Assembly: GCA_030704615.1 (NCBI GenBank)
Contig: CM060733.1
Coordinates: 51,150,001 to 51,214,000, forward strand
DNA length: 64,000 bases
Direction: 5' to 3'
Origin: Takakia lepidozioides
Taxonomy: Eukaryota; Plantae; Bryophyta
The translations under genes and the position numbers were made by a program. The first letter of the stretch is position 1; every line of letters begins with the position of its first letter. The notes beneath the pieces are model-generated. The model saw nothing but the letters and a program-made list of their open reading frames with translations, was not told the origin of the DNA and ran no database searches. This document shows, piece by piece, positions 1,715 through 32,240 of the stretch.

Positions 1715-2050
1715 TGGTTGTCCCACCATTGACTGGGGTAAGAAAAATATTCATTCCACAGCTTCTCCTCGTCTCAGCTGTTACCTGTTTCTGGATACTT
1801 CCCTGTTGTCACATTGGCAGTACCATGTCAAAGTCGCTCCAAACTATCAAAAGCTCACTCAACCAGCTAACTTGCAGAATTCAACATGAAAATTTAGGGC
1901 CGATTCTAATAAGATGGAAAAACAGGGTGAAATGTGTTGAAGAAGGTGCCTTCATTACCAGTGCCTGAGTTTATCATTGTGTCGCTGCTACTGCGGCTTC
2001 TAGTTGACCAGTCACCATCTACCCATGCAGGTTTCTTGTAGCTATTGATC
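1715..2050 (-). pseudogene. Organellar ssDNA-binding (OSB) PDF-motif gene fragment, copy 1
   Basis: Encodes WINSYKKPAWVDG; visibly homologous to 2985-3250 and 49140-49600, which carry the LW.E.F..P..WWDNR.KK and PDFKHK motifs. Confidence 0.6.
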
Positions 2051-5000
2051 CATTTGGTACATTTCCAGCTTTGGTGATGCAACCATGCACCTCCGATGCC
2101 CTTTTCCAGGGCTGCCAGACTTGCACACGCACTGCAAACGCACACAAACATGATGTGGTCGAACTTCACCCCTTCCCCCATCATTTGCTTTCAGGTCTCC
2201 AAAGCCCCATACAGCGCCCCTGCTCTGCACACCCTGCAAACATCACATTCCACAACACCACATCTCATTCAGCCATAGTGTTGAACACTCCCTTGGCATC
2301 CTCAATGCTACCATATTTGGCATACATGGCCACCAGAGCACTGTTCAGGATGACATCTGGAACAATTGCAGATTTGATCATGTCACCAGGGATCTCTTTG
2401 CCCTTTTCCAGGGCTGCCAGACACACTGCAAACACACACAAACCTATGTCGGCGGGCTTCACCCCTTTCCCCCATCATTTGCTCATAGGTTGGAGCCTCC
2501 ATCCCGCACCCCTGCTGTGCATACCCCGCAAGCATCGCACTCCACGACACCACATCTCATTCAGCCATAGTGTTGAACACTCCCTTGGCATCCTCGATGC
2601 ACCCACATTTGGCATACATGTCCACCAGGGCAGGGGCAGTGTTCAAAATGACATCTGGTAATCTGACAAACATTCTCCTTTTAGAATTGTTCCAGCAAAT
2701 GCCCCAACCCTACTGACTTAGAGGCTGTATTGTCCAAAGCCATGTCCATTTCCAGAAAATTGTCTGATGAAAATGAAGTTAGGTAGAAAACTTCCCTGGA
2801 CTTGTTTCCAGTCTGTGACATGGGGGAGGACATCATGGATGACCTCAAGGGTCTACCCACTCTCGGCACTAGACTGAAATTTAAACTAAGGGCAAGAATC
2901 CTACCTTTGAATAGCAAACAGAAGCAGAGAGGAAAGGGAGAGTGCAATTGCATCCAACTCAACTTATCGCACTAGTTCCTATGGTCAATTGCATCTGCTA
3001 CACTCTGTAATCTGACAGGCATTCACCTTTTTGCCTCGGTTGTCCCACCAGTTACTGGGGTCAAAAAAGTATTCATCCCACAGCTTCTTCTCATATCTGT
3101 TACCTGTTTTTGGATACTTAGGGACGACTCTGATAGTAGGGGAATTCAGGGTGAAATATGTTGAAGAAGGTACCTTCATTAGCAGTGGGCCTTGTTCTAT
3201 TAATTGCATTGCTGCCATTGTTGTTTCCAGTTGACCATCTACCCACTCGTAGCCATTGTGCTATTGAAGAAGGTGCCCCCCCTTCCCCCATCATTTGCTC
3301 ATAGCTCTCCAAAGCCTCCATCCCACGTCCCTGCCGTGCATACCATGCAAGCATCGCACTCCACAACACCACATCTCGTTCAGCCATAGTGTCGAACACT
3401 CCCTTTGCATCCTAGATGCACCCACATTTTGCAAACATGTTCACCAGGGTTTTGTTTAGAATGACATCTGGTACAATAATAACTCTGAAGATGTCGCCAT
3501 GGACCTCTTTCCCCTAAGCTGCCAGGGCAGTGTTCAGATTGACATTTGGCACAATTCCATCTTTGATGATATCCCCATGCACCTTTTGCCCTTCTCCAAG
3601 CCGGCTGCCAAGCTTGCACAAGCATTGCAAATGCACACAAACATGATGTGCTTCCCCCATCATTTGCTCATAGCTCTCCAAAGCCTCCATCCCACGTCCC
3701 TGCCGTGCATACCATGCAAGCACCGCACTCCATGACACCACATCTCGTTCAGCCATAGTGTCGAACACTCCCTTTGCATCCTAGATGCACCCACATTTTG
3801 CAAACATGTTCACCAGGGTTTTGTTCAGAATGACATCTGGTACAATATTAACTCTGAAGATGTCGCCATGGACCTCTTTCCCCTAAGCTGCCAGGGCAGT
3901 ATTCAGATTGACATTTGGCACAATTCCATCTTTGATGATATCCCCATGCACCTCTTGCCCTTCTCCAGGGCTGCCAGGCTTGCACAAGAATTGCAAATGC
4001 ACACAAACATGATGTGCTTCCCCCATCCTTTGCTCATAGCTCTCCAAAGCCTTCATCCCACGTCCCTGCCGTGCATACCTTGCAAGCATCGCACTCCACG
4101 ACACCACATCTCGTTCAGCCATAGTGTCGAACACTCCCTTTGCATCCTAGATCCTAGATCCCTTTGCACCCACATTTTGCAAACATGTCCACCAGGGTAT
4201 GGTTCAGAATGACATTTGGTACAATTCCAACTCTGAAGATGTCGCCATGGACCTCTTTCCCTTTTTTCCGGAGCTGCCAGGGCAGTGTTCATAATGACAT
4301 TTGGTATAATTCCAGCTTTGATGATACCCCATGCACCTCTTTGCCCTCGTCCAGGCTCGATGCACCCACATTTCGCATACATGTCCACCAGGGTATGGTT
4401 CAGACTGACATTTGGTACAATTCCAGCTCTGAAGATGTCGCCATGGACCTCTTTCCCCTTTTCCAGAGCTGCGAGGGCAGTGTTCAGATTCACATTTGGT
4501 ACAATTCGAGCTTTGATGATATCCCCATGCACCTCTTTGCCCTTCTCCAGGCCGGCTGCCAGGCTTGCACAAGCATTGCAAATGCACACAAACATGATGT
4601 GCTTCCCCCATCATTTGCTCATAGCTCTTCAAAGCCTCCATTCCACATCCCTGCTGTGCATACCCTGCAAGCACATCATATCGCACTCCACGACACCACA
4701 TCTCGTTCAGCCATAGTGTCGAACACTCCCTTTGCATCCTAGATGCACCCACATTTTGCAAACATGTCCACCAGGGTATTGTTCAGAATGTCATCTGGTA
4801 CAATTCCAGCTCTGAAGATGTCGCCATGCACCTCTTTTCCCATTTCCAAAGCTGCCAGGGCAGTGTGCAGATTGACATTTGGCACAATTCCAGCTTTGAT
4901 GATATCCCTATGCACCTCTTGCCCTTCTCCAGGGCTGCCAGGCTTGCACGCACATTGCAAATGCACACAAACAAGATGTGCTTCCCCCATCATCTGCTCA

Positions 5001-5420
5001 TACCTCTCCAAAGCCTCCATCCCACATCCCTGCTGTGCATACCCTGCAAGCATCGCACTCCACGACACCACATCTCGTTCAGCCATAGTGTCAAACACTC
5101 CCTTTGCATCCTAGATGCACCCACATTTTGCAAACATGTTCACCGGGGTATTGTTCAGAATGACATCTGATACAATTCCAGCTCTGAAGATGACGCCATG
5201 AACCTCTTTCCCCTTTTCCAAAGCTGCCAGGGCAGTGTTCAGATTGACATTTGGCACAATTCCAGCTTTGATGATATCCCCATGCACCTCTTGCCCTTCT
5301 CCAGGGCTGCCAGGCTTGCACAAGCATTGCAAATGCACACAAACACGATGTGCTTCCCCCATCATTTGCTCATAGGTCTCCAAAGCCTCCATCCCACGTC
5401 CCTGCCGTGCATACCCTGGA
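2050..5420 (-). pseudogene. Tandem array of degenerate PLS-class PPR repeats, with an embedded OSB fragment at about 2985-3250
   Basis: Repeated VFDTMAERDVVSWSAMLAGYAQQG / ACASLAALEKGKEVHGDII / NTALVDMYAKCG motifs with many frameshifts; 2985..3218 encodes LWDEYFFDPSNWWDNRGKK. Confidence 0.9.
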
Positions 5421-13261: not shown

Positions 13262-13430
13262 GCTTACACAGTCAGTCATAGCCTTACACAGTTAGACACA
13301 GCTTGACACAACTTGTCACACCCTAACACAGTCAGTCACAACCTTACACAGCCTATCACAGCCTATCACAGTCAGTCACAGCCCGACACAGCCCGACACA
13401 GCTTGGCACAGCCCGTCACAACGTTCACAG
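13262..13430. repeat. Imperfect 10-bp tandem repeat (CACAGNNNNN)
   Basis: cacagcctat, cacagtcagt, cacagcccga and related units. Confidence 0.85.
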
Positions 13431-13439
13431 AGACGGTTA

Positions 13440-14814
13440 TCATTGGCAAGGAATGACTGTGTAGGAACGACATCTGCAGAGGGAACGTGCATTCTATCTT
13501 GGATGACAGTGCGAGTTTACAACCGTTGAGGCTAAAGAAGCATGAAATTGTTGAAGAATATATGGAGAAAATGGAGTTAATGATGAAGAAGCTGGCTGCG
13601 GTACCAGCATCAGGATTACAGAAGACTTGGTTTGTGAGTGGACTAAGGCCTGAATTACAAAAGAAAGTGGATATGCTACCTCATAATACAGTGGAGTAGG
13701 CATTCGAAACAGCCAACAGAATTGAGCAATTGGGAACGCTCAGGAGAGATAAAAGGCATGATGAGGACTCTGAAGATGAGTCAAATGAGGAAGAAGAGCA
13801 AGAGCTCAGGAGGAAGAGCAAGAAGAAGGAAAAGTTGAAGAGGGACAACTATGAAAAAAGACTGGAAGAAATCTTGAAAAATTACACCACAAAGGCTGCA
13901 ACACATTGGAGGAAGGGTGTTTGGTGTGCAAAGTGCCAAAATGAAGGCCATGCCACAATTGAATGCCACATGAAGGAGAAACATTGTACTATCTGTAAAA
14001 TGGATAACCATTCTACTGAGAATTGTTATTACAATAGAAAGACAGCTACAAGAGAACCTAGGCAAGTGAGGATGCATCAAGTGCAACCCCAGCCAAGAAG
14101 AAACAATGACCAGGACCACTATGGTAGGCCTGGTGGGTATAACAATGGTATGGCAGGAAGAGGTAATCCAAGAGGGAATTACCAAGGCAATCCCAGAGGC
14201 AATTATCAGGGTAATCCAAGGGGGAATTACCAAGGCAATCCCAGAGGCAATTATCAGGGTAATCCAAGGGGGAATTACCAGCCAGGGAATCAGGATTATA
14301 GAAATAATCCCATAATAGACCAAGGGCGAGGACCCAATGGTGAAGAACTGTGTTACTATTGTAACCAGGCAGGACATCGCAAAGCAACCTGTCCATTCAG
14401 GATTAGACACCAGAATGAGATGAGAGCTCCTGTGAATGAGGGCCCAGTAGTGGCAGCTCACATGGTTATGCCATGTTTTGTATCAGAAGTAAGTATAATG
14501 ATAGTTACCAGAAGCAAAGCTAAACTATTACCTCCAATGGATGAAGAAGAAGATGTTAATGAAGATGGCAGTGATGTGCCTGAAGACGATGATGCATGGA
14601 GAGATGAGAAGGAACTGCACAAGGAAGTGGTTGATACCATAAGGGAAATGCAGAAGGATACTGATATCCCTATGACAGATTCTTCTGACTCTGAAAGAGA
14701 AGATGAAGAAGGTGAAGATGAAGTGAAGCAAGAGGCTTCACAAGTGCAGGATAATGAAGGGGTTTTGGCTGAAGTAATATGCCAGTCCAAAGCTGAGATT
14801 ACAATTGGGATAGC
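13440..14814 (+). pseudogene. Host Ty3/gypsy gag (part 1 of a disrupted element)
   Basis: WFVSGLRPELQKKV; three CCHC knuckles (CAKCQNEGHATIEC, CTICKMDNHSTENC, CYYCNQAGHRKATC); reading ends ITIG at the 14815 insertion. Confidence 0.85.
14162..14281 (+). repeat. 24-bp coding minisatellite (GNPRGNYQ x5) in gag
   Basis: ggtaatccaagagggaattaccaa-type units. Confidence 0.9.
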
Positions 14815-15002
14815 TGTCGTGCGCATACATATCGCTACACAACTACATCGCTGTCCAAAACCACACAACACATGTGCACACCACACACTAGTATACCACT
14901 AGTCTACCACTAGTCCAGCCACTAGTCCAACCACTAGGCTACAACTAGTCAGTCACTAGGCTGCCACTACACTGCCCACTATGGCAGTCACTAGTCCACA
15001 CA
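14815..15002 (-). repeat. LTR module A, terminal copy (188 bp)
   Basis: Direct repeat of 15334-15521 with one mismatch seen (14971 vs 15490); bounded by TG...CA; rich in CCACTAGT motifs. Confidence 0.95.
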
Positions 15003-15004
15003 AT

Positions 15005-15521
15005 TGATAAAGAAGAAGAATACAAGCACAAGCTCATGCGAGCTCACAAAGCTGAAGCATAAACTCATGCATATATAACCTCATCACTCAAATACAAGTC
15101 AAGCCAAGTGCACCCCACGCCATGGGGAATCCACACTACGGCGCCATAGCTAGGCGCGGTGAGGCTCAACTCGAGAAAGATGAGCCTCCCGCGCTTGCCG
15201 TGAAGATAATCACTCCAGGGCCTAAATCTGCCTTGACCCCTGGATTGATATTTGGGCCAATCCCAAATGTCAATATGTAAAAGATAGCTATTTCCTAGCT
15301 AGTTTCACACTAGTGGTAAAATAACTTGACAGCTGTCGTGCGCATACATATCGCTACACAACTACATCGCTGTCCAAAACCACACAACACATGTGCACAC
15401 CACACACTAGTATACCACTAGTCTACCACTAGTCCAGCCACTAGTCCAACCACTAGGCTACAACTAGTCAGTCACTAGGCTGCCACTACGCTGCCCACTA
15501 TGGCAGTCACTAGTCCACACA
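15005..15521 (-). repeat. Complete 517-bp 3' LTR (module A 15334-15521, GC spacer, module B 15005-15331)
   Basis: On - strand TGTGTGG...TTTATCA, preceded by PPT-like AGGGGGGCG plus AT (15522-15532). Confidence 0.9.
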
Positions 15522-15781
15522 ATCGCCCCCCTAGCTGGTGCTTAGGTCCCTCTAAGTCCAGGTAGCCACAAGATGTGATAGTGACCATAGCCTCACTAAG
15601 TCCTCCACCACTATCCCTACTACACTCAAACTCGATAGATCAAGAGGCCGGGTGCAAGAGTTGCCCCATCGTTAGTCGCCGTCTTGCAACCTGTGAACTT
15701 GAGCTTGGGATCTCATGTATTGACTCCTATGAGCTTGGCCTCCCATGTCTTGTTAGCTGCCTCCAGTCATGTCCACTGCCA

Positions 15782-17629
15782 CTATCCCAAGCAGTGTGGA
15801 CACAACCAATCTCCGTCAGGAACCTTCTCAAGAGGTGGTGTCAAGCATCCCATATGCCAACCCCTTGAGCACCGATCACACACCGGCATGGTGGCTGCCC
15901 CTTTGGCAGACCCACAGAGCATGCACCTCAAACCTGCAGGTACCACTGCCAAGTTTGGGTCAACTCTGCCATCGACATTGGGAAGGTGACATGGCGCATA
16001 ATTACGCACATGATCTTTCCAAGTCATGCCATCCCGACCCTCTAAGATCAGGACCCCTGAGGGCAACACCTCTCGAACCCTCAGAATAACACGCCCTGCA
16101 GTAACATCCAGAGTCGTAGGAGCAGTCTGCTGCAAATAAACATAGTCACCAGGGCTAAACCTCCGAACCCCAGGACGATATCCTCCACCACGTATAGTGG
16201 CATACCTCAACGTATCACGATGCTGTGCAATGGCAAGGTTCTCAAAAGCCATGGGCATGACTTTATTGAACAACTCTGCACGCTGATCACATGCACGTAC
16301 CCACACGTCCGGATTGTCAAGGTTAAGGACTTGAGCAGTGTCCCTACGAATGGCTGTAGGCAAATCCGGCTCTCGGCCAAAGAGAAGGAAATATGGTGAG
16401 AAGGAGGCAAGTGATGCTTGTTTGCTGAACCTGTAGCCCATGGCTAACCAAGGAACCTGAAGATCCCAATCTCCTAGGTGTCCCTTCTGCAAGCCATACT
16501 TGCGCAAACCCCTCTTCACCGTCTGAACAACTCTCTCTGCTAAGCCATCAGCCTCAGGATGATCCCGAGAAGTGGTGCGGTGGTCTATCAAGGCTTTATC
16601 ACACAAAGCCTGAAACTCCCCCAAGAACTCTCTCCCTTGGTCCGTGAGTACCTCAGCTGGAGCACCAAATCGGCTAAGCACACGATCCAAGAATGCATAC
16701 GCAGCCCCCTCACTAGCCTTGTCAGGCAATGGAACCAACTCAATCCACTTGGAGAAATGCTCCACCATCACCAACACATATCTGTGGTGGCGCATAGTCA
16801 GTGGCAACGGTCCTGCGAAGTCAAGACTCCATCTGTAGCCCAATCCCATGATAGGTAAAGGATGCAACTGTGGTATAGGGGCGTTAAACGAAGCACGCAC
16901 CCTGTCACACACCATGCACCTAGCCACAAACTGTTGCACCTCTGTATGCATACCACGCCACCAATACTGCCCCTGCAGTAAACTGTGAGTGCGTCGCACT
17001 CCAAAATGCCCCAACTCCTCATGGGCATGCCGCACTAACCATGCACGCTGTGTGGGGTGAGGCACAATCCTCACCCGACCACCCTCCCACACTCGAAGTA
17101 GGTGTATCCCCTCCCACTTGAACCTCTTGGCTCGTTGTAGGATCCGATCCCTCTCCCTGGCAGTCACAATGGCTGCCGTGTCTCCCGTGCGGAGGTAGTC
17201 CAACACAGTCGAATCCTCATGTATATCTCTGGCACCACCTAGCTCATCACTAGCCTCAGGGTCCTCAGACACTCCGTCTACAGTCATCCCTGTTGTAGGT
17301 CCAATCTGACCTCCCGATGCCAAGATACACAAAAATGCAGATGCGTGCCATCCCGGCACCATCTCCTCGTCCGTCTCACCATGCCACCGAGCTCCAGTGT
17401 CATCCTGCTGGCTCATGCATGGATTGCGACTCAATCCATCCGCATCCCGATTGACCAAACCCGGTCGATGCACAACCTGAAAGTCATACTCCTGGAGTAT
17501 AAGTGCCCACCGTGCAAGCTTCCCCGTAAGCTTGTCTGACTCCATCAACCACTTGAGTGGCTGGTGATCCGTGACAAGGGTGAAAAGATTGCCGTATAGA
17601 TAGCACCTGAAGTGTGCCACGGCCCACAC
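15782..17629 (-). CDS. RNase H C-terminus, integrase (HHCC, DDE) and C-terminal PHD finger
   Basis: WAVAHFRCYL...TDHQPL; HEELGH...CMVC; WSLDFAGP...LTDQGREF...GLAER; PHD C4HC3: CMLC...CDRC...HMGC...WLCPHC. Confidence 0.93.
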   Translation of the reverse strand: MWAVAHFRCYLYGNLFTLVTDHQPLKWLMESDKLTGKLARWALILQEYDFQVVHRPGLVNRDADGLSRNPCMSQQDDTGARWHGETDEEMVPGWHASAFLCILASGGQIGPTTGMTVDGVSEDPEASDELGGARDIHEDSTVLDYLRTGDTAAIVTARERDRILQRAKRFKWEGIHLLRVWEGGRVRIVPHPTQRAWLVRHAHEELGHFGVRRTHSLLQGQYWWRGMHTEVQQFVARCMVCDRVRASFNAPIPQLHPLPIMGLGYRWSLDFAGPLPLTMRHHRYVLVMVEHFSKWIELVPLPDKASEGAAYAFLDRVLSRFGAPAEVLTDQGREFLGEFQALCDKALIDHRTTSRDHPEADGLAERVVQTVKRGLRKYGLQKGHLGDWDLQVPWLAMGYRFSKQASLASFSPYFLLFGREPDLPTAIRRDTAQVLNLDNPDVWVRACDQRAELFNKVMPMAFENLAIAQHRDTLRYATIRGGGYRPGVRRFSPGDYVYLQQTAPTTLDVTAGRVILRVREVLPSGVLILEGRDGMTWKDHVRNYAPCHLPNVDGRVDPNLAVVPAGLRCMLCGSAKGAATMPVCDRCSRGWHMGCLTPPLEKVPDGDWLCPHCLG

Positions 17630-17634
17630 TGCAG

Positions 17635-18915
17635 CTAAGCACTCTCCCTCATATGAGCTGTATTAGCCTCTGCAGCGTTGTTCGAGCGGCTAGCGTAAGC
17701 CACTACGAACTCTCTTCCCTCATCATCCACCTGTGTGAGCACCGCTCCAAGCCCCAGCATGCTCCAATCCGTATGCAGCTGAAAGGGACGCCCCCTGATA
17801 GGTCGTCTCAAGATAGGCGCCGAGGTCAACCTCGCCTTGAGCTCTTGAAAAGCTCGTTCCTGCTCATCTTCCCACTGCCACTCCTGGTCCACCTTGGTCA
17901 GCTTGGTTAGAGCCTTTGCAATGGTACTAAATCCCTTGACAAACCGTCTATAATAGTTTGCCAACCCCATGAAAGCTCGAACTCGGCTCACATCCGTGGG
18001 GCGTGGAATTTGTGCAATGGCCTCTACCTTAGTCTGCTGTACCCCCAATCCTCCAGGATATATCATGTGATCCAGATACTCAATCTGGTTGTGGAAAAAC
18101 TTGCACTTCCCCGGATGCAACTTCAATCCGTGCGCTCTCAAGCGCTCCAATACCACCTGAAGGTGTCTCTCATGCTCCTCCATCGTAACACTAAAGATGA
18201 TGATGTCATCTATGTAGCACCGAGCAAAGTCCACCCCTGCTAGAATCCTATCCATGACTCTCTGAAACTCTGCAGGAGCATTCTTAAGCCCAAATGGTAA
18301 GAACCGCCACTGATATAGGCAATCCTTGCCGTGCTCATTGATCCCCCAGAATGCCGTCTTCTGCTTGTCCGCCTCCTTGATTGGCAACTGGTGATATCCG
18401 GATCGTAAATCCAAAGTGCTAAAGGCCTTAGCATGCCCGATGGCATCAAAGATCTCCTCTGGTGTTGGCATGGCATACTTATCGGACTTGGTCTGACGAT
18501 TTACAGGCCGGTAATCACCGCACATACGTCTCTCCGTCCAATTGCCATAGACATCCTTCTTGGCTGGCATCACTGTGGCTGAAGCATACTCTCCACCAGA
18601 GAGCTCCACCAAACCTGCCTCCCAGAGATCTTGAGTCCTCATCTGAATCAAAGACCTCTCCATGTCACTGTATCTATAGGGTCTCCGAAAGATTGGCGTG
18701 TCAGTGGCCAACTCAATACGGATCTCTTGACCCTTCAGTGCTCCCAAGTCCTTCAAACTGAAGGCAAAGCAATTCCTGTAAGCCCTCAGGAACCGCCGTA
18801 TACGTCGTCTCTCTCCTCCGGTGACAATGGGTCCAATGTCAGGCTCCCAATTGTCCTCCGTAACTACAACCTTAAGTCCAGTGGGCTTAGAGGTAGAGGA
18901 CGCGTCCCGTGGTTG
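17635..18915 (-). CDS. Reverse transcriptase and RNase H N-terminus
   Basis: RMCGDYRPVN, LDLRSGYHQ, LPFGLKNAP, YIDD, LHTDWS...LGAVLTQ; frame continuous with the upstream ORF across one TAG at 18916-18918; frameshift near 17630. Confidence 0.95.
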   Translation of the reverse strand, partial: QPRDASSTSKPTGLKVVVTEDNWEPDIGPIVTGGERRRIRRFLRAYRNCFAFSLKDLGALKGQEIRIELATDTPIFRRPYRYSDMERSLIQMRTQDLWEAGLVELSGGEYASATVMPAKKDVYGNWTERRMCGDYRPVNRQTKSDKYAMPTPEEIFDAIGHAKAFSTLDLRSGYHQLPIKEADKQKTAFWGINEHGKDCLYQWRFLPFGLKNAPAEFQRVMDRILAGVDFARCYIDDIIIFSVTMEEHERHLQVVLERLRAHGLKLHPGKCKFFHNQIEYLDHMIYPGGLGVQQTKVEAIAQIPRPTDVSRVRAFMGLANYYRRFVKGFSTIAKALTKLTKVDQEWQWEDEQERAFQELKARLTSAPILRRPIRGRPFQLHTDWSMLGLGAVLTQVDDEGREFVVAYASRSNNAAEANTAHMRESA

Positions 18916-21013
18916 CTATGCTGCAACCTCTTGAGCAGTACTCCCTACCTGCTCAGTCAATGACAAGGCATCATCCTGCCCCATCATCTCATCCTTGAGG
19001 ACCTCCTCAACTCGAGAAGAATCCCCAACCTCATCCATCACAGCCGCCTTGGCTGCCAACTCCCTCTGAACCTCGAGCACCTCCCACGTGTGCCATGGAT
19101 GCATGCACCCCGTGGTCCTCATATGCTCGCCCCCACTCACTGCCTGTACCGTCTCGGTAGGCAGAGAGACCATTGAGGGAAGTGTATTCCGCACTCTGCG
19201 TTGCTCAGCTAGAGCCAAGCTGATAATCCAGGTCAAGCAATTGAGATCCATTGCTTGCCCCAACACTTGACGACGTGATGCCTCAGAAAGAGACGACACC
19301 GCCGTGGTACCAGTGGTAAAACCCATTGCCCGCTCACGCTCGTCAGCATTAGGCTCCACTAACTGCTGCAACTGAGCATCCCACAGGAGGCCAGGTCCAC
19401 TATCCCGGAAAATGCGATCCTGGGAAGCTGAGCAGTGTAGGTAATGCTGCTCGTGGTTGACCCACCTTGTTGACCACTGCCAAAGGCGAACGGTCATCGT
19501 GTCTCACACGTTGAGACTGCCTCCCTGTGTCCAGAATGTTATCCACTGTGAGATGTGCTGGCCGCTGCACCCCATCAAATGCACGCTTGAGCAGTGCGGG
19601 TGGCATCATGTTAGTCCACCATAGCCGTGGACGATGAGCCCGTGACCCCACTGTAGCTGCATCTAGCAACACTGCTGACCCAAGCCACGACCGGACTTGA
19701 TGCACACTGGCCATCACCCTGGCCCGAGAATCGCCCATCAGTGGCACATTCTCCAAGATGTATGCTGGAGATACAGCTTGATGAAGCTGCAAGTGGCGCA
19801 AAACCCGCACCATCTCCCAAAACAGACCCGACCTCGAGTCTCGCAATCCATTGCCATGCCCGGCTGATGAATGCCCTTGGCAGGGCCAACCTGCCACTAC
19901 CAGATCAATGGAGCCAACCCGCTCCAAATCCTGCGCCCCCAGCAACGAAATGTCTGCTGGCAAGGCCTGCTGATATCCACGAATTGCAGACACCGACAAC
20001 AACTCAGGGTACCGCTGCACCAACTGAGCAACATGGCGAAGTGAAACGCGTCGTGCAGTCTCATCCCTCTCCACATACAGGTAACGCCGAACTCGTACAC
20101 CTGCCTGTAACACAGCAGCCAATCCGGTGCTGATCCCGCCAAACAAGTCCAGAAGACAAATGCCTTCATCCGGAGACTGCCACACAATAGGTGTGGTGTC
20201 CAATGGAGACAATTGAGGTGGTCCTGGTGCAATCCCCACACTCTCCTCCTCTCCTGACGGTACAAAAGCCTCCACCCAGGCTTGTTGCACCCGTCGATCA
20301 GCATCCCGCTGCAAATCCTTGCTCGTGCCCCACAATGGAGTCTGAGCAACCATGGTAGGCAACTCCGCCATACCATACATGTCATCCTGCTCTCCCGGAG
20401 GTGGTACATCCTCTGAATGAGCATTGCCCTCAAGCAACTCTCTAGGCCAACTCACTGCCGCTGTGAATGCTGCTAGTGTCGGCATCTTGCCTCGCTGGGC
20501 AACCGCAACTCCTCCTATGAACGTCACAGGGAGCTGCACACGCCGGCCCTCCCCTGACTGCCATGCAGGCCTATAGGAAGCTGACTCCTCCCAAAAATCC
20601 AGGGTGAAGCCCATGGGGTACAACACTGCCCCACCAACCAGGACATCGTATGAGACTGCGTCTGTCACAATGGCCTTGGCTCGCATCACTGAGCCATCTG
20701 TAGGGTGATCCGGCCGTAGTCTGATAGCCAACTCACGCCGTGTCATGCCCCGAGCCTGCTCCGATCCTCCCAGAGACGTCTGTATCTGGAAAGGACAAGG
20801 CTCCATATCCGCCTCCGTGAGGCCCAAGCCTGCAATAGCAGCTCTGCCCAGCATCAATGGCTGAGCTCCCGAGTCCAACAAGACCCGCAGTGGCCGGTAC
20901 CTCTTGCCTGCCGGTCCACTCAAACAGAAAATGCCATCCTGGTTGTCTAACATGACAACTCCAGGTGTCACCATGGCGCGCTCAATGGCTGGCCTAGCTG
21001 GCAGCTCCATCAA
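18916..21013 (-). CDS. Aspartic protease fused to a DNMT3-like C5 cytosine methyltransferase (frameshift near 19400-19430)
   Basis: VLLDSGA (protease); motif I LDLFGGIS, YVERD, motif IV GWPCQG, motif VI ENV, motif VIII AHRPRLWWTN, motifs IX/X ERERAMGF...RRQVLGQAM. Confidence 0.92.
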
Positions 21014-23078
21014 CCTGGCAGCTGCAGCTTGCCATGGCGCCGCCGTGGCAGTCTTACCCTCAAATCCGAGGATCCCTCCGGCACTACACCTCCCACTATC
21101 TCCGCAGAAGATGAAGTAACCTCCCCACTCTCACAGAGTGTAGCTGCCAGCCTGAACACCTCAGCTGGTCTTACCCCCGGCGTCGCAATCATGGTAGCCG
21201 AGAACAATGGAGCCTGGCACACAGATGTGGCCGCTCCTAGCAGCACACTAGCTGCCGTAGCCTTGGCAACACTAGGTAGTGGTGCTACCCGTGTAGCTCT
21301 CCCCAATGGCATAGTAACCTCCGCCTCGGTAACAGTCGGGCGAGAACTAGGTGCCATGGATGGCGTCGACACTGTCTCCGCCAATGTGAATGACTGAGGA
21401 AGCCTAGCCTGACGGCTTGCCTCCCCACGCTGTGGATCCAACTCCACCTCTGCACCTCGTGGCTCAGGAACTCGTGCTGCTCCTCGAGTCACGGCTGCAG
21501 CAGACTCCACCTGCACTAGTGGTAGTGCTGCTCCACACATGAATCCCATGCCTCCCATATCTCCTCCCTCAGGAGCAGGAGGTGGACCATCCGGCCTTAG
21601 AGCCGGTACCACCTGAGCTGTAGCCATGGCAGCGAGCCTCTGCTCTAGCTGCTGAAGCCGGTTGGCCATGCCTTGGTCAACACCCTGACCTCCGCGTCCT
21701 TGGCCACGTTGAGCTTGCCCTTGGCCTCGTGGCTGGCCACCTCGTCCCCTCTGGGCTGCTCCACCTCGCCCCCGGCCACCATTGTTCCCTGGAACTGGCC
21801 TGGGCGCAACTCAGGATGCAAACCATAACACTGAGCCTCTCCATGCCCGTGTTTGCCACAATGCCCACACTGTAACTGTGCAGGCTGTGCATGTGCCGGC
21901 CCTTTGCCTCCCTCTGGACAATCCTTCTTGACATGGGGTCCTCCACATGTCCAGCACACCACATCCGCCCGTTGTTGGCCAGCAAATGAAGGGAGAGACC
22001 CCTGCATCTGAGGTCCTCTCTGCCCTTCCCTGAGCTTCACCTGAGCCCCCTTGTTGCCTTGAGCACGTTGAGGTAGTGGTTGGCTAGGAGCACCACTACC
22101 CCGTGGTGTCTCCTTAGCAAATCCCACCATGACCACTCGTTCCTCCACCATGTTGAGCTCTATCCGCTCTGCCAGCAAAAACACATTTGCTAAGGTGGGT
22201 TGGGCCGCTTGTAGGAGAGTTGCATCCCGCACCCTTCTCCTCAGCTCCTTGTCCAATATCCCATACCAGAATTGGACTGCCTGAGCTTCCGTAACCCCTT
22301 GGGTTACATTTATCAAGCGCCTCATGCGAGTGAAAGCCTCCCTCAAGCTCTCGGTCGGCTTCCGTTGGAACTCTTGCAAGCTCCGCAACTTCTCTGTCCT
22401 CACCCCTTGGTAGTTCCCTCTCAACTCTTCGAAGAACTCCACAACAGGGTTGAAGGCAGGCACGGGTGCTAGTGCTGGTGCGGTAGTGGCTTGGGTGGAC
22501 GTCGTAGCTACTGTACCACCAGTCCCACTGCTGCTTGCTGAAGCTGCCGGTGCAGCGGCAGGTGTAGCCACTGCCCTCGTGGCTCTAGTGCCCCTAGTGA
22601 TGGAGATATAGTCGGGTGACCAGTACATCCTCCACTCCTCGATCTCAACCTCATGCCCCCGCCTGAACTCATGGTAATCATCCATAGGCGGCCCCTCAAG
22701 GTGCTGAAACAGCCCCTTCCATGCCATGAAAGGCGTAAATAGTTGTGGATTGCGCATTTGCTGCAAATCACACCAACTATCAAACTCTTGGATAAAATCA
22801 TCCAACTCAATGGTGCCCACCGCCCCAGAGTACCTTCGTGGCCCCTTGGTAGCTCCATACATCTCCTCCATTGTGTCCCACAACAATGGCAAAGAAACAA
22901 CTTGCACCGCCGGTATGAGTCCTCCCGATTCACAATCCGAATCAGAACCTTCCGTAGAAGACACAGGAGGTGAAGGTGGCCTAAACCGCACACCTCGTCT
23001 CGTGTACCCACTAGTATCGCTAGTGCTCGAACCGGCACTGTCCCCAGCAACTAGTGGCACCTCCGTGTTGACACTCAA
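21010..23078 (-). CDS. Gag (frameshifted; ORFs 21645..23078 and 21010..21669)
   Basis: Retrotrans_gag-like LQEFQRKPTESLREAFTRMRRLI...FWYGILDKELRR; knuckles CWTCGGPHVKKDC and CGHCGKHGHGEAQC. Confidence 0.85.
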
Positions 23079-23809
23079 CCGGTCATGAACATGTCCCTAA
23101 CCCCCTCTTCACAAGGTAACCGGGTAGAGAACCTGTTGCGGCTTATGGTTTGGAATACTAAGTTCCTAACATAGCCTACACCTGTACCTGCATCCACCGC
23201 AAGCACTCCTATGGTTGGCTGGTCATCACCTCCAACCTCACCACAGGAGAAACAATGATGGTCTGGCTGGTCATCACCCCAGCCTCACCATCGACAGCAT
23301 GCTCTAGGACTGGCCGGTGATCAAATCCGGACCAATCACCTATAAAAACAAGCGCCCACACAAAACTAGCATGTCGCACAGTCAAGCATGCAGGTATGGA
23401 GGGGATCCAAACACAAGAAATCAGATCGACAACTCCCCCACACCAAAAACAACTCCACGGTGTTGCTCCTGCAAGGACACCCCAGCCCAAACCCGGACTG
23501 ACTCTTGCCTCCACCTACGGAAAGGTCTTGGCCTAATGAGAGGGTGGAAACTACGAGGAAGAGAAGCTAAAGCAATGCCTAACCCACATGCTCTCATCCC
23601 AACACTCTGCCTCTCCTCTCTACCCTCACTTGCATGACCATGGGAATATCTTGAAGATACTCCTCAAACCGCCCTCCACGAGCTTCAAAATTCGGCCTTC
23701 CAGACCACATGCCAGTCCTTAGGCAATCCACCAGTGCCTCCACGAGTCAGCACAGGCCGTCCACAGGTCAACACGGGTCACCACAGACCAGCACAGGCCC
23801 CCACAGCTC

Positions 23810-25105
23810 ACTGGTCACAGCCGTCACAGTCCCACAGGCCACTGGGCACAGCCTGTCGCAGCCCCTCACAGCCTGTCACAGCCTCAAAGGCCTCAGGCAC
23901 GGCCTGTCATAGCCCCTCACAGCCCCTCACAGCCCGTCACAGCCCCAAAGGCCTCAGGCACGGCCTGTCACAGCCCCTCACAGCCCCTCACAGCCTCAAA
24001 GGCCTCAGGCACGGCCTGTCACAGCCCCTCACAGCCCGTCACAGCCCTCAAAGGCCTCAGGCACGGCCTGTCACAGCCCCTCACAGCCCGTCACAGCCCC
24101 AAAGGCCATGGGCACGGCCTGTCACAGCCCCTCACAGCCCGTCACAGCCCCAAAAGGCCTCAGGCACGGCCTGTCACAGTCCCTCACAGCCGTCACAGCC
24201 CCAAAGGCCATGGGCACGGCCTGTCACAGCCCCTCACAGCCCGTCACAGCCTCACAGGGCACAGGGCACAGCCTGTCACAGCCCATCACAGCCCATCACA
24301 GCCTGTCACAGCTTGCCACAGCCCGTCACAGCCTCAAAGGCCTCAGGCACGGCCTGTCACAGCCCTCACAGCCTCAAAGGCCTCAGGCACGCCTGTCACA
24401 GCCCCTCACAGCCCGTCACAGCCCCAAAGGCCATGGGCACGGCCTGTCACAGCCCCTCACAGCCCGTCACAGCCCCAAAGGCCATGGGCACGGCCTGTCA
24501 CAGCCCCTCACAGCCCGTCACAGCCTCAAAGGCCTCAGGCACGGCCTGTCACAGCCCCTCACAGCCCATCACAGCCTCAAAGGCCTCAGGCACGGCCTGT
24601 CACAGCCCCTCACAGCCCGTCACAGCCCCACAGGCCTCAGGGCACAGCCTGTCACAGCCCCACACAGCCCGTCACAGCCCCAAAGGCCACTGGGCACAGC
24701 CTGTCACACAGCCTGACACAGCCCGTCACAGCCCCACAGGGCACAGGGCACAGCCCATCACAGCCCATCACAGCCCGTCACAGCCCGTCACAGCTCCACA
24801 GGGCACAGGGCACAGCCTGTCACAGCCATCACACAGCCCATCACAGCCTGTCACAGCTTGCCACAGCCATCACAGCCCGTCACAGCCCCACAGGCCACTG
24901 GGCACAGCCTGTCACAGCCTGACACAGCCCGTCACAGCCCCACAGGGCACAGGTCACAGCCTGTCACAGCCCATCACAGCCCATCACAGCCTCAAAGGCC
25001 TCAGGCACGGCCCGTCACAGCCCATCACAGCTCGCCACAGCTTGACACAGCCCGTCACAGCCCGTCACAGCCCGTCACAGCTTGCCACAGCCTGTCACAG
25101 CCCCA
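23810..25105. repeat. About 1.3-kb higher-order minisatellite of CACAGCCYST decamers in the element's 5' leader
   Basis: cacagcccgt/cacagcccct/cacagcctgt units punctuated by aaaggcctcaggcacggcctgt. Confidence 0.95.
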
Positions 25106-26600
25106 CACATGGCCGCTCTGGCAGTTTAGCCATTTCTCCAAGGGGTTTAGCCATGCCAAGCTAGGGTTTGTGTCTCTTGGACTCTAGGCTTCTTTCCACC
25201 GAGCTATGGTGGCTGTGAGGAAATCAGCAAGGTATCCTTGCTCTTTCGGCTCCCACACACCACCATAGTAGCCCTAAGCCATGAGGTGGTTGCCACAAAC
25301 CAAGCCTTCTTTCTCACTTAGCCTCCCCAAACACGCCACTAAACTCAATGGCAAACAACCAAGCCCTGCTGGTTCCCAGCCCTTGTGAGCACTCATTCAA
25401 GCACTCCCCTCATTGGCCATAGCATCTGTCTTAGAGCCTATTCCAGCCCTCTACACCTGTTGCTTCAAGAGTTGCGCTCCCTTCAAGCTTGAAGTTGAAA
25501 CCCCAACTCACATAGGCCCTACAAGTGCTGTTCTTTCACTCCAAGTGGAAACCAGCCCTAGACCTTCCGTTCTAGCTCTCTAAGGCTTGAAAACAAGAGC
25601 CTCAATGGGCTGAAGGCATGCTCCACACATGCCCCACTCTCACCATAAGAGAATCAGCTCATTTGCTTCATTTCTTGCACCCACAAACCTGATAATACAA
25701 GCTTCAGCAGGCTGAAAGCATGCTCTACATGCCCTACAGGGAAACCAGCCCCTTCCTTCCTTTCTTGCACTCCCACACCTAAAAGTGCAAGTCTTCACCA
25801 GGCTGATAGCATGCTCCACACATACATTGCCCTCACATAAGGGAAGTCAGCCCTTCCCTCTTCCTTGCTTGCCCTCCAAGCTTGAAGATGGAAGCTTCAA
25901 TGAGCTGAATACATGCTCCACACATGCAACCTCTTCACACAAGAGATATCAGCCCCCTATCTTGGCTCCTTGGCTCCTTGATGCTCTCTATGACAAGACT
26001 AAGCACTCCATAGCCTTTGCCAAGCTCCTGAAACCCTAAGGCTTACATTTCCAGCCACAAGACACTTCTCTTGTGGTGCAAGAACTCTTCTTCCAAGCTC
26101 TGAAACCCTAGGTGCACATTCCATGGCCTTGCCGCACCTCTTAGCTCCTGTTCCAGCCCTGCTCTCGCCATGACAAGAGCCCTCTCAATGCTGAAGCTCG
26201 AGATTGAAACCCAATCTCACCATACTCCACAAAGTGCACTGATTTGCCCCAAGCCAAATTAGCCCTTTCGCTTGGTCTTGCAATCCTTCACACAATGAAA
26301 GCTCGCATTCCCAAGTCCAGTTCTCAGCTTTGCCACCAAAGCCACTATAACCTGCTCTTGACTGGTCCTCTTCCCAATCGTGCTTGCTCATGCATGTACA
26401 CAATCTGAAACCATCAAGGTGCTCTGGAATTACCTGCAGCATGGTGCTTTCATCTCTGAAGCTGAAGATCGAATGCCAAGGTCTACCACCTCATAACCCA
26501 CATCGCCTCCGCTTCTAACAACCAAGAGCTCCACGGTGCTCCTTGCATAACAACTTGGTTTCTCTCATTCTCAAGCAAAAACCACAAGTGCTACAACTAA

Positions 26601-26642
26601 CTCGTATCTGGCACTCACAGATACGAGCTCATCTTTCTCGAG
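26601..26642 (-). promoter_or_regulatory. Putative self-priming PBS with adjacent hairpin
   Basis: 26627-26643 is the exact reverse complement of 26807-26823 inside the LTR; perfect 10-bp stem 26601-26610/26618-26627; no TGG tRNA PBS. Confidence 0.75.
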
Positions 26643-26969
26643 TGATAAAGAAGAAGAATACAAGCACAAGCTCATGCGAGCTCACAAAGCTGAAGCATAA
26701 ACTCATGCATATATAACCTCATCACTCAAATACAAGTCAAGCCAAGTGCACCCCACGCCATGGGGAATCCACACTACGGCGCCATAGCTAGGCGCGGTGA
26801 GGCTCAACTCGAGAAAGATGAGCCTCCCGCGCTTGCCGTGAAGATAACCACTCCAGGGCCTAAATCTGCCTTGACCCCTGGATTGACACTTGGGCCAATC
26901 CCAAATGTCAATATGTAAAAGATAGCTATTTCCTAGCTAGTTTCACACTAGTGGTAAAATAACTTGACA
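26643..26969 (-). repeat. LTR module B, 5' terminal copy (327 bp)
   Basis: Direct repeat of 15005-15331 with three C/T mismatches seen. Confidence 0.95.
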
Positions 26970-26973
26970 TAGC

Positions 26974-27093
26974 TATTGGCTGTGGCACCCCATTGTAGAC
27001 ACAGGTTGTATCAAGCAATCAATCAGATTGCTCATGTGACAAAGAACACAGACCTGAACAGCAAGGTGACAAATTATAATGTGAAGCTTGAAG
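26974..27093 (+). pseudogene. Host gypsy gag-pro linker (part 2)
   Basis: LLAVAPHCRHRLYQAI...VKLE; continues in frame after the CACTA at 33439 (G*ETIMDFNDSMPVIQLG). Confidence 0.75.
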
Positions 27094-28425: not shown

Positions 28426-28999
28426 CAGATTGTGGGCACCTCTTCCTTGACAAGTTAGATTGTCTCCCTGTCTGTAATGCGTAGGCCCGTCTCCATTCCA
28501 CGATTATTTCCCATTCCAACTTTGATCAACCCTACATGGAGGCCCTTGCCCTGTTCGAAGGCTATTGGGGTAGTACATGCGTTCACTCATAGGAACAGTT
28601 GTCATCACAAACAGAAGAGAGTCAAGTTTGAGCCACTGCCTAGGATCAACACAGTTGGGCAATCTGCCAGTTTTAGTTACAGCATTGGGGATGGACTGTT
28701 TCCTAGTACTTCATTCCAGCGACGACAACATAGTGTGTGGTCTCTTGAGCAGATGAGAGATGAGGCAAGGACATTGGAGAGACTGAGTGATGAGAGCACA
28801 AAGGAAAAGAAAGAGGGGAGTGAAACTGTGAGTGAGGACTTAGCTGATGTGTTGTTGAAAGAAGAAGAGATGAACCAGCAGAACCAGTAGTTGGCAACCA
28901 TGGAGAACGGGCCTGCACAGGCATCAAAACAAAAGGAGAATTTTACTGAGAAATGAGCTCAGCCATTCACGTACACATTTGGTAACTAACGAGGTCGCG

Positions 29000-31900
29000 T
29001 CAAAGCTGGAATTGTACCAGTTGTCATTCTGAACACTGTCCTGGTGGACATGTATACCAAATGTAGGTGCATTAAGGATGCAAAGGGAGTTTTCAACACT
29101 ATGGCTGAACAAGATGTGGTGTCATGGAACGCGATGCTTGCAGGAAATGCACATCAGGGATGTGGTATGGAGGCTTTGAAGACCTATGATCAAATGATGG
29201 GGGAAGGGGTGAATGCGATGATTGCATGTGCAAGCCTGACAGCTCTGGAAAAGGGCGAAGATCAGGTCCATGGCGACATTGTTAGAGTTGCAATTGTACC
29301 AAGTGTCATTCTGAACAATACCCTCGTGGACATGTATGAAGGGAGTATTCGACAGTATGGCTGAATGAGAGTGGTGTCGTGGAGGGTGATGATTGCAGAT
29401 ATGCACAGCAAGGGCGCGGGATGGAGGCTTCGGAGACCTATGAGATATTGATGTGCGAAGAGGTGAAGCCCCACCGCATAATGTTTGTTTGCATTTGCAA
29501 CGCGTGTGCAAGCCTGGCAGCCCTAGAAAGGTGCAAAGAGGTCCATGGTGACATCGTCAAAGCTGGATTTGTACCAGATGTCATCCTGAACACTGCCCTA
29601 CTGGACATGTATGTCAAATGTGAGTGCATCGAGGATGCAAAGGGAGTGTTCGACAGTATGGCTGAACGAAATGTGGTGTCGTGGAGTGTGATGATTGCAG
29701 GATATGCACTGCAAGGGGTGGGATGGAGGCTTTGGAGACCTATGAGCAATTGATGTGTGAAGAGGTGAAGCCCAACAACATCACATTTGTTTGTGTTTGC
29801 AATGCGTGTGCAAACCTGGGAGCTCTGGAAAAGGGGAAAGAGGTCCATGGTGACATCGTCAAAGCTGGATTTGTACCAGATTTCATCCTGAACACTGCCC
29901 TGGTGGACATGTATGCCAAATGTGGGTGCATGAAGGATGCGAAGGAAGTGTTCAACACTATGGCTGAACAAGATGTGGTGTCGTGGAACGCGATGCTTGC
30001 AGGGTATGCACAGCAGGGGCATGGGTCGATGGAGGCTTTGGAGACCTATGAGCAAATGACGGGGGAATTGTACCCGATGTCATTCTGAACACTACCGTGC
30101 TAGACATGTATGTCAAATGTGAGTGCATCGAGGATGCAAAGGGAGTGTTCAATAGTATGGCTGAATGAGATGTGGTGTCGTGGAGTGCGATGCTTGCAGG
30201 ATATGCACAGCAAGGATGCGGGATGGAGGCTTTGGAGACCTATGAGCAATTGATGTGCGAAGGGGTGAAGCCCAACCGCAACACATTTGTTTGTGTTTGC
30301 AATGCGTGTGCAAGCCTAGGAGCTCTGGAAAAGGGGAAAGAGGTCCATGGTGACATCGTCAAAGCTGGATTTGTACCAGATGTCATCCTGAACACTGCCC
30401 TGGTGGACATGTATGCCAAATGTGGGTGCATGAAGGATGCGAAGGGAGTGTTCAACAATATGGCTGAACGAGATTTGGTGTCATGGAACACCATGCTTGC
30501 AAGGTATGCACGGCAGGGGCGCGGGATGGAGGCCTTGGATCAGACCTATGAGCAAATGATGGGGGAAGGGGTGAAATGCAACCACATCACGTTTGTGAGC
30601 GTTTGCAATGCTTGTGCAAGCCTGGCAGCCCTGGAAAAAGGGCAAAGAGGTCCATGATGGGGGAAGGGGGGAAGCCCGACCACATCACATTTGTGTGCAT
30701 TTGTAATGCGTGTGCAAGCCACATTCATTTGTGTTCTCAATGTTGGTGCTAGCATGGTGGCCCTGGAGAAGGGCAAAGATATCCATGCTGACATTATCAA
30801 AGCTGGAATTTCGTCATACATTAATTGGAAAACTGCCCTTGTTAACATGTATGCCAAATATGGGAGTGTAAGGGAGGCATGTCTAGTGTTCAACACATAT
30901 GGTGGCAGGATATACCAAGCATAGTTGTGGTAGGAATGCCTTTGAGACATATGATCAACTGATACAGCAAGGGGTGATGCCCTATCAGGTCACATTTGTT
31001 TGCATTCTCAAGGCTTGTGCGCGACTGGCAGCCCTGGAAAACGACAAAGAGGTCCATGCTGACATATGAAAGCTGGACTTGTACCAAATCTGATTTTGAA
31101 CAATAGCCTTGTTGACATGTATGCGAAATGCGGGAGCATGAAGGTTGCAAAGAGAGTATTTGTCAACATGGCTGAACGGGATGTGGTGTCGTGGAATGCC
31201 TCAAACGATCTTGATCACGTGGAATATAATGTTGGCAGGATTTACCAAGCATGGGTGTGGTAGGAATGCTTTTGAGACCTATGAGCCGATTCTGCGCAAA
31301 GCGGTGAAGCCCAACCACATCAGATTTGTTTGTGTTTGCAATGCGTGTGCAAGCCTGGCAGCCCTGGAAAAGGGCAAAGAGGTGCATGGTTGTATCGCCA
31401 AAGCTATTCAACAATATGGCTGAACGAGATTTGGTGTCATGGAACGCCATGCTTGTAGGATATGCACAGTAGGGGTGCGGGATGGAGGCCTGGGGGAAGG
31501 GGTGAAGCCCGACCACATCACGTTTGTGTGCATTTGCAATGCGTGTGCAAGCCTGGCAGCCCTGGAAAAGGGCAAAGAGGTTCATGGTGACATCATCAAA
31601 GTTGGAATTGTACCAAATGTTATTCTGGACACTGCCCTGGTTCACTTGTATGCGAAATGTGAGTGCAATGAGGATGCAAAGGGAGTATTTGACAATATGG
31701 CTGAATGAAATGTGGTGTCGTGGAATGCGATGATCGCAAGACATGCCCAGCATGGTTGTCATAGGGAGGTCCTGCAACTATTTGAAGGAATGCAAAAGAA
31801 AGGCTTGAAGCCGGACAATATCACCTTTATATGTGTTCTCTCTGCCTGCAGCCACACTGACCTACTGAATGAAGGAAGACACTACTTCGATTCCCTGAGT

Positions 31901-32240
31901 GAAGATCATGGTATCAATCTAACAGTAAAGCACTTTGGCTGCATGGTGGACCTTCTTGGACGTGCGGGACAACTGGATGAGGTAGTGGACCTAATTAATA
32001 AAATGCCAATCAATCCAAATGTTGTGGTGTGGAAGGCCTTGCTTGGTGCCTGCAGAATCCATGGCAATGTGGAGATGGCTGAATGTGTAGCAACATTTAT
32101 CTCAAGTGGGATGAACAGGATGCCGCGACTTATGTGGTGCTATATCAAACATCTATGTTGTAGCTGGCAGGTGGGATGATACTGCAAAGGTGAGAAGAAT
32201 GATGAAGGTCAGAGGGGTTAGAAAGGAAAGATGCTAGTGT
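29000..32240 (+). pseudogene. PLS-E class PPR pseudogene (RNA-editing-factor type)
   Basis: Many P-L-S triplets; terminal FICVLSACSH...HFGCMVDLLGRAG...WKALLGACRIHGNVEMAE (E1) and frameshifted E2; no DYW seen; many stops. Confidence 0.92.

Follow-up and report, generated by a model that had tools for sequence, protein, structure and literature searches.

A Gypsy-type retrotransposon of the moss Takakia lepidozioides with a DNMT3-like methyltransferase ahead of a conserved stop codon, an integrase-terminal PHD finger and split terminal repeats

The stretch of Takakia lepidozioides DNA analysed here (64,000 nucleotides of contig CM060733.1, positions 51,150,001 to 51,214,000; hereafter the window, in whose numbering all positions are given) contains on its minus strand, at 26969-14815, a Gypsy-type retrotransposon of the same kind as Klebsormidium Gypsy-Dnmt3, in a copy that is young and has broken reading frames. 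Hereby, the sense-strand order is gag, protease, DNMT3-like cytosine methyltransferase, reverse transcriptase (RT), RNase H, integrase and PHD finger. The additions over the known kind are its land-plant range, a stop codon of the readthrough type, probable self-priming and a predicted attachment site inside the long terminal repeat (LTR). For the element as a whole we favor, with moderate confidence, an account in which Gag-protease-DNMT3 would be made in bulk and RT-RNase H-integrase-PHD by readthrough, integration would proceed from circular complementary DNA (cDNA), and this cDNA would be methylated before or at insertion.

Searches with Pfam hidden Markov models matched DNA_methylase (E 8e-13), RVT_1 (E 6.5e-32), RT_RNaseH_2 (E 4.6e-21), Integrase_H2C2 (E 9.4e-16), rve (E 1.3e-13) and PHD (E 9.6e-9), whereby the two domains singled out for such a check in the original prediction, DNA_methylase and PHD, were both recovered. 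Weak matches, under the curated cut-offs, were obtained for protease (E 0.021) and for gag (E 0.0023). The coding region occupies six minus-strand reading frames. A capsid-like gag (21645-23096; weakly matched by Pfam and matched in relatives) with two Cys/His knuckles (21956-21918 and 21869-21828) is followed by a linker frame (21010-21810), similar text of which is found in a Marchantia protein (P0001), and by a frame (19400-21130) comprising the aspartic protease (LLDSGAQ, 20881-20861) and most of the C5 methyltransferase (motifs I to VIII, 20152-19610). A further frame (18919-19503) supplies the C-terminal portion of this enzyme (19341-19246) together with the tail of the first open reading frame (ORF1); RT (YIDD, 18216-18205) and the start of RNase H follow at 17635-18915, and the remaining RNase H, an HHCC zinc finger and the DDE integrase core at 15782-17662, the latter frame closing ORF2 with a C4HC3 PHD finger (15791-15925).

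The order gag, protease, RT, RNase H, integrase, the DDE integrase, the TG..CA ends, the short target duplication and the polypurine tract are those of Ty3/gypsy elements. A complete LTR on both sides of the internal region is not found; instead, one repeat (A) stands at the 5' side and three (B-A-B) at the 3' side. Thus, the Gypsy enzymes are present, whereas the canonical terminal layout is not. Assignment to the tyrosine-recombinase (YR) elements was rejected, as a DDE integrase is present and no tyrosine recombinase was found by Pfam. Four frame breaks, near 21.79, 21.06, 19.41 and 17.66 kb, preclude function, so that the window copy itself is dead; the breaks may reflect decay or assembly error. 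Many other copies of the same species lack these four breaks, and the family is very abundant in contigs from public sequencing runs, as judged from contig depth, which is not equal to copy number.

All protease, methyltransferase, RT and PHD motifs quoted in the original prediction lie where it had placed them. For the methyltransferase these are motif I LDLFGGIS (20152-20129), GWPCQG with the catalytic cysteine (19891-19874), ENV (19753-19745), AHRPRLWWTN (19639-19610), ERERAMGF (19341-19318) and RRQVLGQAMD (19275-19246). The catalytic domain had been described as full, but in the window copy the break near 19.41 kb splits it, with the final motifs on one side and the motif VIII/target-recognition region on the other. 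Among solved proteins, DNMT3A/B match best by sequence (E 1.2e-9), followed by DRM (2.9e-5) and M.HhaI (3.6e-4). The truncated window domain modelled without an alignment reached a pLDDT of only 36. The unbroken domain of a relative (L022; L-numbers denote metagenome loci and P-numbers database proteins), folded with a 51-row alignment, gave a pLDDT of 93 and found its best fold matches in DNMT3B, 3C and 3A (E 5e-19). Among solved C5 methyltransferases, DNMT3 proteins are therefore closest in both sequence and fold, in line with the DNMT3-like nature claimed for the domain.

The domain is found well beyond this copy. A methyltransferase query returned 41 long protein matches, including twelve from Marchantia (58-77% identical) and one each from Sphagnum, Closterium and Klebsormidium, and 72 of medium length, among which 11 from Marchantia, 3 from Calypogeia, 2 from Sphagnum, 1 from Riccia and 2 from Closterium are named. 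In neither list is a fern, lycophyte, hornwort or seed plant named, and no host DNMT3 or DRM sequence is among the matches of either list. The same query also matched 33 metagenome loci, whose gene order is the same. In a search from the RT side, each of the nine close relatives with over 150 residues of sequence ahead of RT has the domain in that stretch. Carriage of the methyltransferase is thus a family-wide trait and no one-off capture. Within a viral contig collection (viral_contigs), 13 pattern matches to relatives were obtained, of which 0 were confirmed. Two protein records filed under cyanobacterial names (P0124 and P0199) are pieces of this plant element, likely placed there via binning.

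In the RT tree (48 rows) the window element falls into a set of 15 (support 100/100) with Calypogeia, Marchantia, Coleochaete and five of the loci; in the methyltransferase tree (39 rows) it belongs to a set of 8 that also comprises Marchantia, Calypogeia and Sphagnum (SH-aLRT 99). Both trees group the window copy with the same liverwort and moss elements; methyltransferase and RT have travelled together. The Klebsormidium protein P0037, on a long branch, shares with the window a 34-row group of the RT tree apart from the outgroups, and another Klebsormidium RT (P0079) lies outside it. The methyltransferases of window and Klebsormidium are 45% identical.

Selection on the domain was estimated from the ratio of nonsynonymous to synonymous substitution rates (dN/dS). 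Compared with the window, the methyltransferase gives 0.07-0.20 in six of ten pairs, the other four being saturated. For the unsaturated pair L022/L023 (dS 0.25) the values are 0.119 for the methyltransferase, 0.053 for RT and 0.107 for the protease, while in decayed copies the methyltransferase (0.38-0.70) resembles the copies' own RTs (0.39-0.71). Of 93 proteins in which motif IV ([AG]W[PE]xQ) can be read, 89 have the catalytic cysteine; W-P-C-Q is invariant in 21/21 alignment rows, and GW[PE]C is found in 96 of 120 domain-matching proteins, among which are fragments as well as three matches that are weak and unrelated. These values indicate purifying selection on the methyltransferase across the family. 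The outcomes that had been named as fatal to the original prediction, namely absence of the domain from other members, neutral evolution and loss of the catalytic cysteine from the consensus, are not what we find. The idea that the window merely records a single captured piece of host DNMT3, or a chance rearranged insertion, decaying neutrally, could draw on the four frame breaks. It is contradicted by the order, stop and termini common to many families, by dN/dS near 0.1, by the many copies in the same species that lack these breaks and by the concordant placement in the two trees, and we regard it as refuted and its probability as negligible.

Between methyltransferase and RT lies an in-frame TAG (18918-18916) followed by CAA CCA (whole site 18910-18918), which places the two enzymes in separate open frames; hereby, the RT frame offers no methionine before residue 85. 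A chance lesion was considered as the origin of this stop and rejected, since the stop is conserved in relatives. The start of RT is covered by 21 of the 33 loci; their first in-frame stop upstream of it is TAG in 14 and TAA in 7. CAR-YYN follows directly in 21/21 loci, the strict form CAR-YYA in 4. Within the internal region of the element, the loose context occurs at 2 of 225 stop triplets and the strict context at the 18918 site only. UAG-CAR-YYA is the type I readthrough signal of tobacco mosaic virus, according to the accessible part of PMC3542737. Locus L022 has only two open frames, both intact (1369 and 1047 aa) and sharing one phase, a Calypogeia-type cluster shows 1319- and 1040-residue products on contigs of equal length, and Marchantia proteins of about 1280 residues terminate 70 residues past the domain. 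Because a conserved stop with CAR-YYN divides methyltransferase from RT, the methyltransferase is likely made at the level of Gag, with RT-integrase-PHD supplied by occasional readthrough. Most ribosomes would terminate at the end of the methyltransferase and some would continue through UAG-CAR-YYA, and particles would hold the enzyme in Gag-like amounts, a step we propose with high confidence. A methylation writer packaged together with RT had originally been envisaged; the writer is indeed part of the element, but it ends the gag-protease frame, and the conserved stop precedes RT.

The termini depart from those of an ordinary LTR element. Between two copies of a 4-bp target-site duplication (14811-14814 and 26970-26973), the sense order is A1, leader, ORFs, polypurine tract, B1, GC, A2, B2, i.e. 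A-ORFs-B-A-B. A1 (327 bp, 26643-26969, starting TGTCA and ending CA) forms the 5' end of the element and corresponds to the 3' part of a normal LTR. At the other side, a polypurine tract kept in relatives (15524-15532) is directly followed by B1 (190 bp, 15334-15523, ending GACA), the GC spacer, A2 (15005-15331) and, as 3' end of the element, B2 (14815-15004). Since B1-GC-A2 runs from the polypurine tract to CA, and A1 stops at the primer site, B and A together constitute one ordinary LTR. The A copies differ at 3 of 327 and the B copies at 1 of 190 positions, all transitions. With 4/517 mismatches, the insertion is recent, in agreement with the four differences and young age noted originally.

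The two outer ends of the element are the two halves of the internal B1/A2 junction GACA-GC-TGTC (15328-15337). As 10-bp palindromes are common (69 in the window), the argument from this junction rests on its place and conservation and not on palindromy itself. L019, whose repeats barely align with those of the window, has the same plan, the same junction and a 4-bp duplication; the junction recurs in L025 and, with a GT spacer, in L022. In a Sphagnum-type family, seven distinct insertions with unrelated flanks start at TGTCA of A, none with B ahead, and all 3' ends seen (5/5) stop at GACA of B. The target duplication measures 4 bp in all three elements for which both ends are available (window, L019 and L012). 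That the split repeats are an accident of this one insertion was rejected, because the same plan is seen in other loci.

Since the A-ORFs-B-A-B order, the 4-bp duplication and the conserved palindromic B/A junction occur together, the terminal anatomy fits an integrase that would open a 2-LTR circle inside an LTR. Ordinary LTR reverse transcription would yield BA-internal-BA, end joining a 2-LTR circle, and cleavage of GACA-GC-TGTC after each CA, with a 4-bp stagger at the target, would give A-internal-B-A-B, while a 1-LTR circle would give A-internal-B; we consider this route likely. Cuts after CA on each strand leave 2-base 5' overhangs, as retroviral integrases make. Retroviral precedents exist in foamy virus and HIV-1, whose integrases are able to cleave palindromic circle junctions between LTRs, as stated in the accessible parts of PMC1180852 and PMC4372172.

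The split repeats could also arise from template jumps of RT on an RNA spanning A1 to B2, as proposed for PAT/Ngaro-type elements, the integrase then using a linear or RT-closed product and no end-joined 2-LTR circle. The layout equals that of split-direct-repeat YR elements and is called DIRS-like in Klebsormidium (Fig. 4 legend of PMC5890265), and the A2/B2 joint, which resembles an LTR-LTR circle junction, is clean in the window and L019. Against template jumping, the polypurine tract, primer site and LTR ends occupy their normal LTR places, the A2/B2 joint falls exactly at two such ends, and in L012 and L013 some bases of the primer site remain between A and B, which is possible at circle junctions. 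We therefore rate template jumping as quite unlikely and retain the opened circle. In L012 (12575-13471), the 3' end is rearranged, includes a piece of A in inverted orientation and retains primer-site bases at the A/B joint.

The primer-binding-site-like stretch at the A1 end (26627-26643) lacks the initial TGG, and a tRNA primer was rejected on this ground. Instead, its 17 bases pair perfectly with bases 147-163 of A itself (26807-26823 in A1). L019 and L014 likewise show a perfect 17-base pairing of different sequence, and none of 2000 shuffles reaches 17. This covarying pairing indicates self-priming, a trait of Tcn1, Tf1 and Sushi elements (described in the accessible part of PMC6317226) that the window element shares as judged from sequence pairing. 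Very probably, the RNA would start inside A, at the 17-base stretch, and its first 17 bases would prime reverse transcription at the A end, as in Tf1/Tcn1. Directly 3' of the primer site stands a short hairpin (9-bp arms, 7-base loop; 26560-26626). The long 5' leader further holds a tandem array of a 51-bp unit repeated 23 times and made of 10-bp units (23815-25103); CACAGC-type 10-bp arrays occur here and at 13263-13420, upstream of both gag genes of this region and in opposite orientation relative to them. In public-run contigs the leader is covered less than the coding part.

What would a methyltransferase made in such amounts act on? We lean slightly towards the element's own cDNA, which the enzyme would mark, probably at CG, so that the circle or new copy may pass as host DNA; cDNA methylation has been proposed for DIRS elements by de Mendoza 2018 (accessible text of PMC5890265). 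Alternatively, the abundant enzyme may work inside the nucleus, with integrated copies or host chromatin as its substrate, as self-silencing or as a brake on transposition favoring host survival. The frame would supply more enzyme than one cDNA requires, a host-benefit role is raised in the same text (PMC5890265), and moss DNMT3 writes de novo CG and CHH methylation on chromatin (PMC6453930). However, the domain comes without a host targeting part such as DUF3444, and its fusion to Gag would pull it into particles, as Gag fusions are drawn there. Nuclear action thus seems unlikely to us, and methylation of particle cDNA remains the reading adopted here.

The PHD finger is nearest to those of KDM5A/B (PHD1), CHD4, PHF12, PHF21A and ATXR5, most of which presumably read unmethylated H3K4. 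A tryptophan two residues before the histidine marks PHD fingers that read K4me3; it is found in 0/70 relatives. The finger may hence tether the integrase to H3 tails unmethylated at K4, i.e. to silent chromatin, for which we see the chances as evenly balanced. The window copy was inserted into the gag of another repeated element, a single case; this interrupted host, itself abundant, is a truncated gypsy-like gag-pol with a zinc knuckle on the plus strand (13432-14814 and 26974-27093). The assumption that gypsy lineages of non-seed plants are known to have PHD-tipped integrases was not confirmed, the term PHD being absent from the main text of Neumann 2019 (PMC6317226).

Several points weigh against this account or narrow it. 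Of the 21 loci with the stop, 17 belong to one Sphagnum-type family with duplicates, so that effectively about four families stand behind the count; the most distant of them is 50% identical. Domain placement also varies: the land-plant branch shows protease-DNMT-stop-RT, whereas in algal relatives (Closterium, Klebsormidium and other records) one predicted protein runs from protease through the methyltransferase into RT without a stop, and in chlorophyte-type relatives the methyltransferase lies between RNase H and integrase-PHD (P0019, P0022 from Hariotina, P0024-P0026, P0029, P0032-P0036 and P0039). Because the algal stop is missing and the chlorophyte-type domain is placed elsewhere, Gag-level supply is not needed everywhere. 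The self-pairing is restricted to 7-11 bases in five of eight tested cases, all of them decayed copies. Three loci (L010, L011 and L017) end tract-B-flank without A2-B2, and these A-internal-B forms could equally well result from recombination between B1 and B2 after insertion. The comparison of termini comprises the window copy and metagenome loci, with the window species represented by one copy, and all 33 loci were chosen by their methyltransferase, so that members that lost the domain are invisible among them. The CpG depletion of the element (0.54) is no stronger than that of its flanks (0.43-0.50), and neither CpG nor CHG depletion sets it apart from its surroundings. KnitGypsy-Dnmt3, the Klebsormidium counterpart, gave no methylation in yeast, where human DNMT3B failed too, a result called inconclusive by its authors (accessible text of PMC5890265).

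The last two observations would suit a domain kept for DNA or RNA binding, or for RNA methylation, that writes no 5-methylcytosine on DNA. Yet the S-adenosylmethionine-binding, catalytic PC, ENV and RxR motifs are all conserved, the predicted fold matches DNA-bound DNMT3, and SymbioDIRS-Dnmt3 does methylate CG (accessible text of PMC5890265). A purely non-methylating role on DNA is thus improbable in our view. Both the methylation of cDNA and the reading of histones by the element are propositions.

A wider reading, which we put forward tentatively and hold to be somewhat less probable than not, is that a green-lineage clade of integrase-bearing LTR elements would use a DNA circle as its regular substrate, opened at an LTR-internal palindrome; DNMT3 supplied at Gag level by readthrough would methylate the circle, and a PHD-guided integrase would deliver it to silent chromatin. 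The clade would thereby have converged on the DIRS plan of split repeats, circle and own DNA methyltransferase with retroviral chemistry, with many copies annotated as hypothetical proteins in Marchantia.

The purpose of methyltransferases in retrotransposons has been open since 2018, since the known hosts, Symbiodinium and Klebsormidium, are experimentally difficult. Marchantia polymorpha, a genetic model, harbors many copies of this kind of element, so that the question becomes testable there; methylation mutants of Marchantia show derepressed transposons (accessible part of bioRxiv 10.1101/363937). The terminal anatomy points to an LTR element integrating from circles, which are usually regarded as side products. 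LTR finders that depend on a matching pair of terminal repeats would probably overlook such elements or place their borders wrongly, and in bryophyte genomes the open frames of these elements can raise the number of DNMTs counted. Elsewhere in the window, frame-broken PPR arrays, mutually about 70-90% related and taken by us to be of the PLS class, lie at 1700-5420, 28860-32180 and 49000-50280. Leucine-rich-repeat exons at 61445-63518 resemble LRRC9-type proteins of seed-free plants (a label from a Selaginella record); the best matches reach 62-65%, and among the ten top matches Diphasiastrum (45%), Riccia (41%) and Selaginella (38%) are named.

Compared with known systems, the window element is closest to KnitGypsy-Dnmt3 of K. 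nitens, for which the accessible text of de Mendoza 2018 (PMC5890265) gives a Dnmt3 in the Pol of a Gypsy element, Ka/Ks below 0.2 and, in the Fig. 4 legend, DIRS-like repeats. Both have the Gypsy domain set, an unpermuted Dnmt3-type domain between protease and RT (P0037 for Klebsormidium) with conserved catalytic residues, purifying selection and, judged against that legend, a DIRS-like repeat layout. Unlike it, the window element resides in a land plant and has a conserved stop with a readthrough motif: the paper's description, though not its defining trait, of a methyltransferase continuous with RT in one Pol frame does not apply to the land-plant branch. A terminal PHD is present here, while the word is absent from the paper's text, although its figure may show one; target duplication, junction palindrome, self-priming and integration route are likewise not part of that text as available. 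It names charophyte Gypsy carriers only, whereas chlorophyte-type carriers are found here too.

Accordingly, the view that the combination is new in an embryophyte holds in part. Literature searches returned no paper describing Gypsy-DNMT3 in land plants, although the supplementary trees of PMC12344493 and of a 2026 preprint (bioRxiv 10.64898/2026.05.21.726589), or subscription papers, may include bryophyte sequences; the accessible parts of these two works devote one line each to streptophyte elements. The Pfam domains, motifs and liverwort and moss relatives bear out that this is a land-plant element of the Ty3/gypsy type, that it brings its own DNMT3-like domain and that its integrase ends in a PHD. 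KnitGypsy-Dnmt3, however, already joins the domain with DIRS-like repeats, and algal relatives join DNMT and PHD. For split repeats combined with an integrase, no paper emerged either, judging by search listings, though supplements and subscription papers may contain one.

With SymbioDIRS-Dnmt3 (accessible text of PMC5890265) and PAT/Ngaro-type elements the window element shares split direct repeats, an own DNA methyltransferase and a likely circular intermediate. It differs in its DDE integrase, protease and 4-bp target duplication; the tyrosine recombinase, missing DDE integrase and missing target duplication that define those groups are not what is seen here. The Tf1/Sushi and Tcn1 chromoviruses have in common with it the Ty3/gypsy order, self-priming in place of a tRNA and a chromatin reader at the integrase end (accessible part of PMC6317226). 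Here, a PHD stands at the integrase C-terminus in place of their chromodomain, and methyltransferase and split repeats are added; the RT tree had no Tcn1/Tf1 row. EpiLTRs/DAM-LTRs are likewise LTR elements with a DNA methyltransferase and a chromatin reader, but those, found in Cymbomonas and Euglena, bear a chromodomain together with DAM and a DNMT4-sister domain, and the 2026 preprint itself, in its accessible part, separates them from 'streptophyte Gypsy-DNMT3' (bioRxiv 10.64898/2026.05.21.726589). In foamy virus and HIV-1, finally, integrase also cuts a palindrome of two abutted ends to give integrable DNA, but it does so at the LTR-LTR junction, and a normal provirus results (accessible parts of PMC1180852 and PMC4372172). 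In the element described here, the predicted cut lies inside the LTR, and since all observed insertions are permuted, integration from the circle would be the rule.

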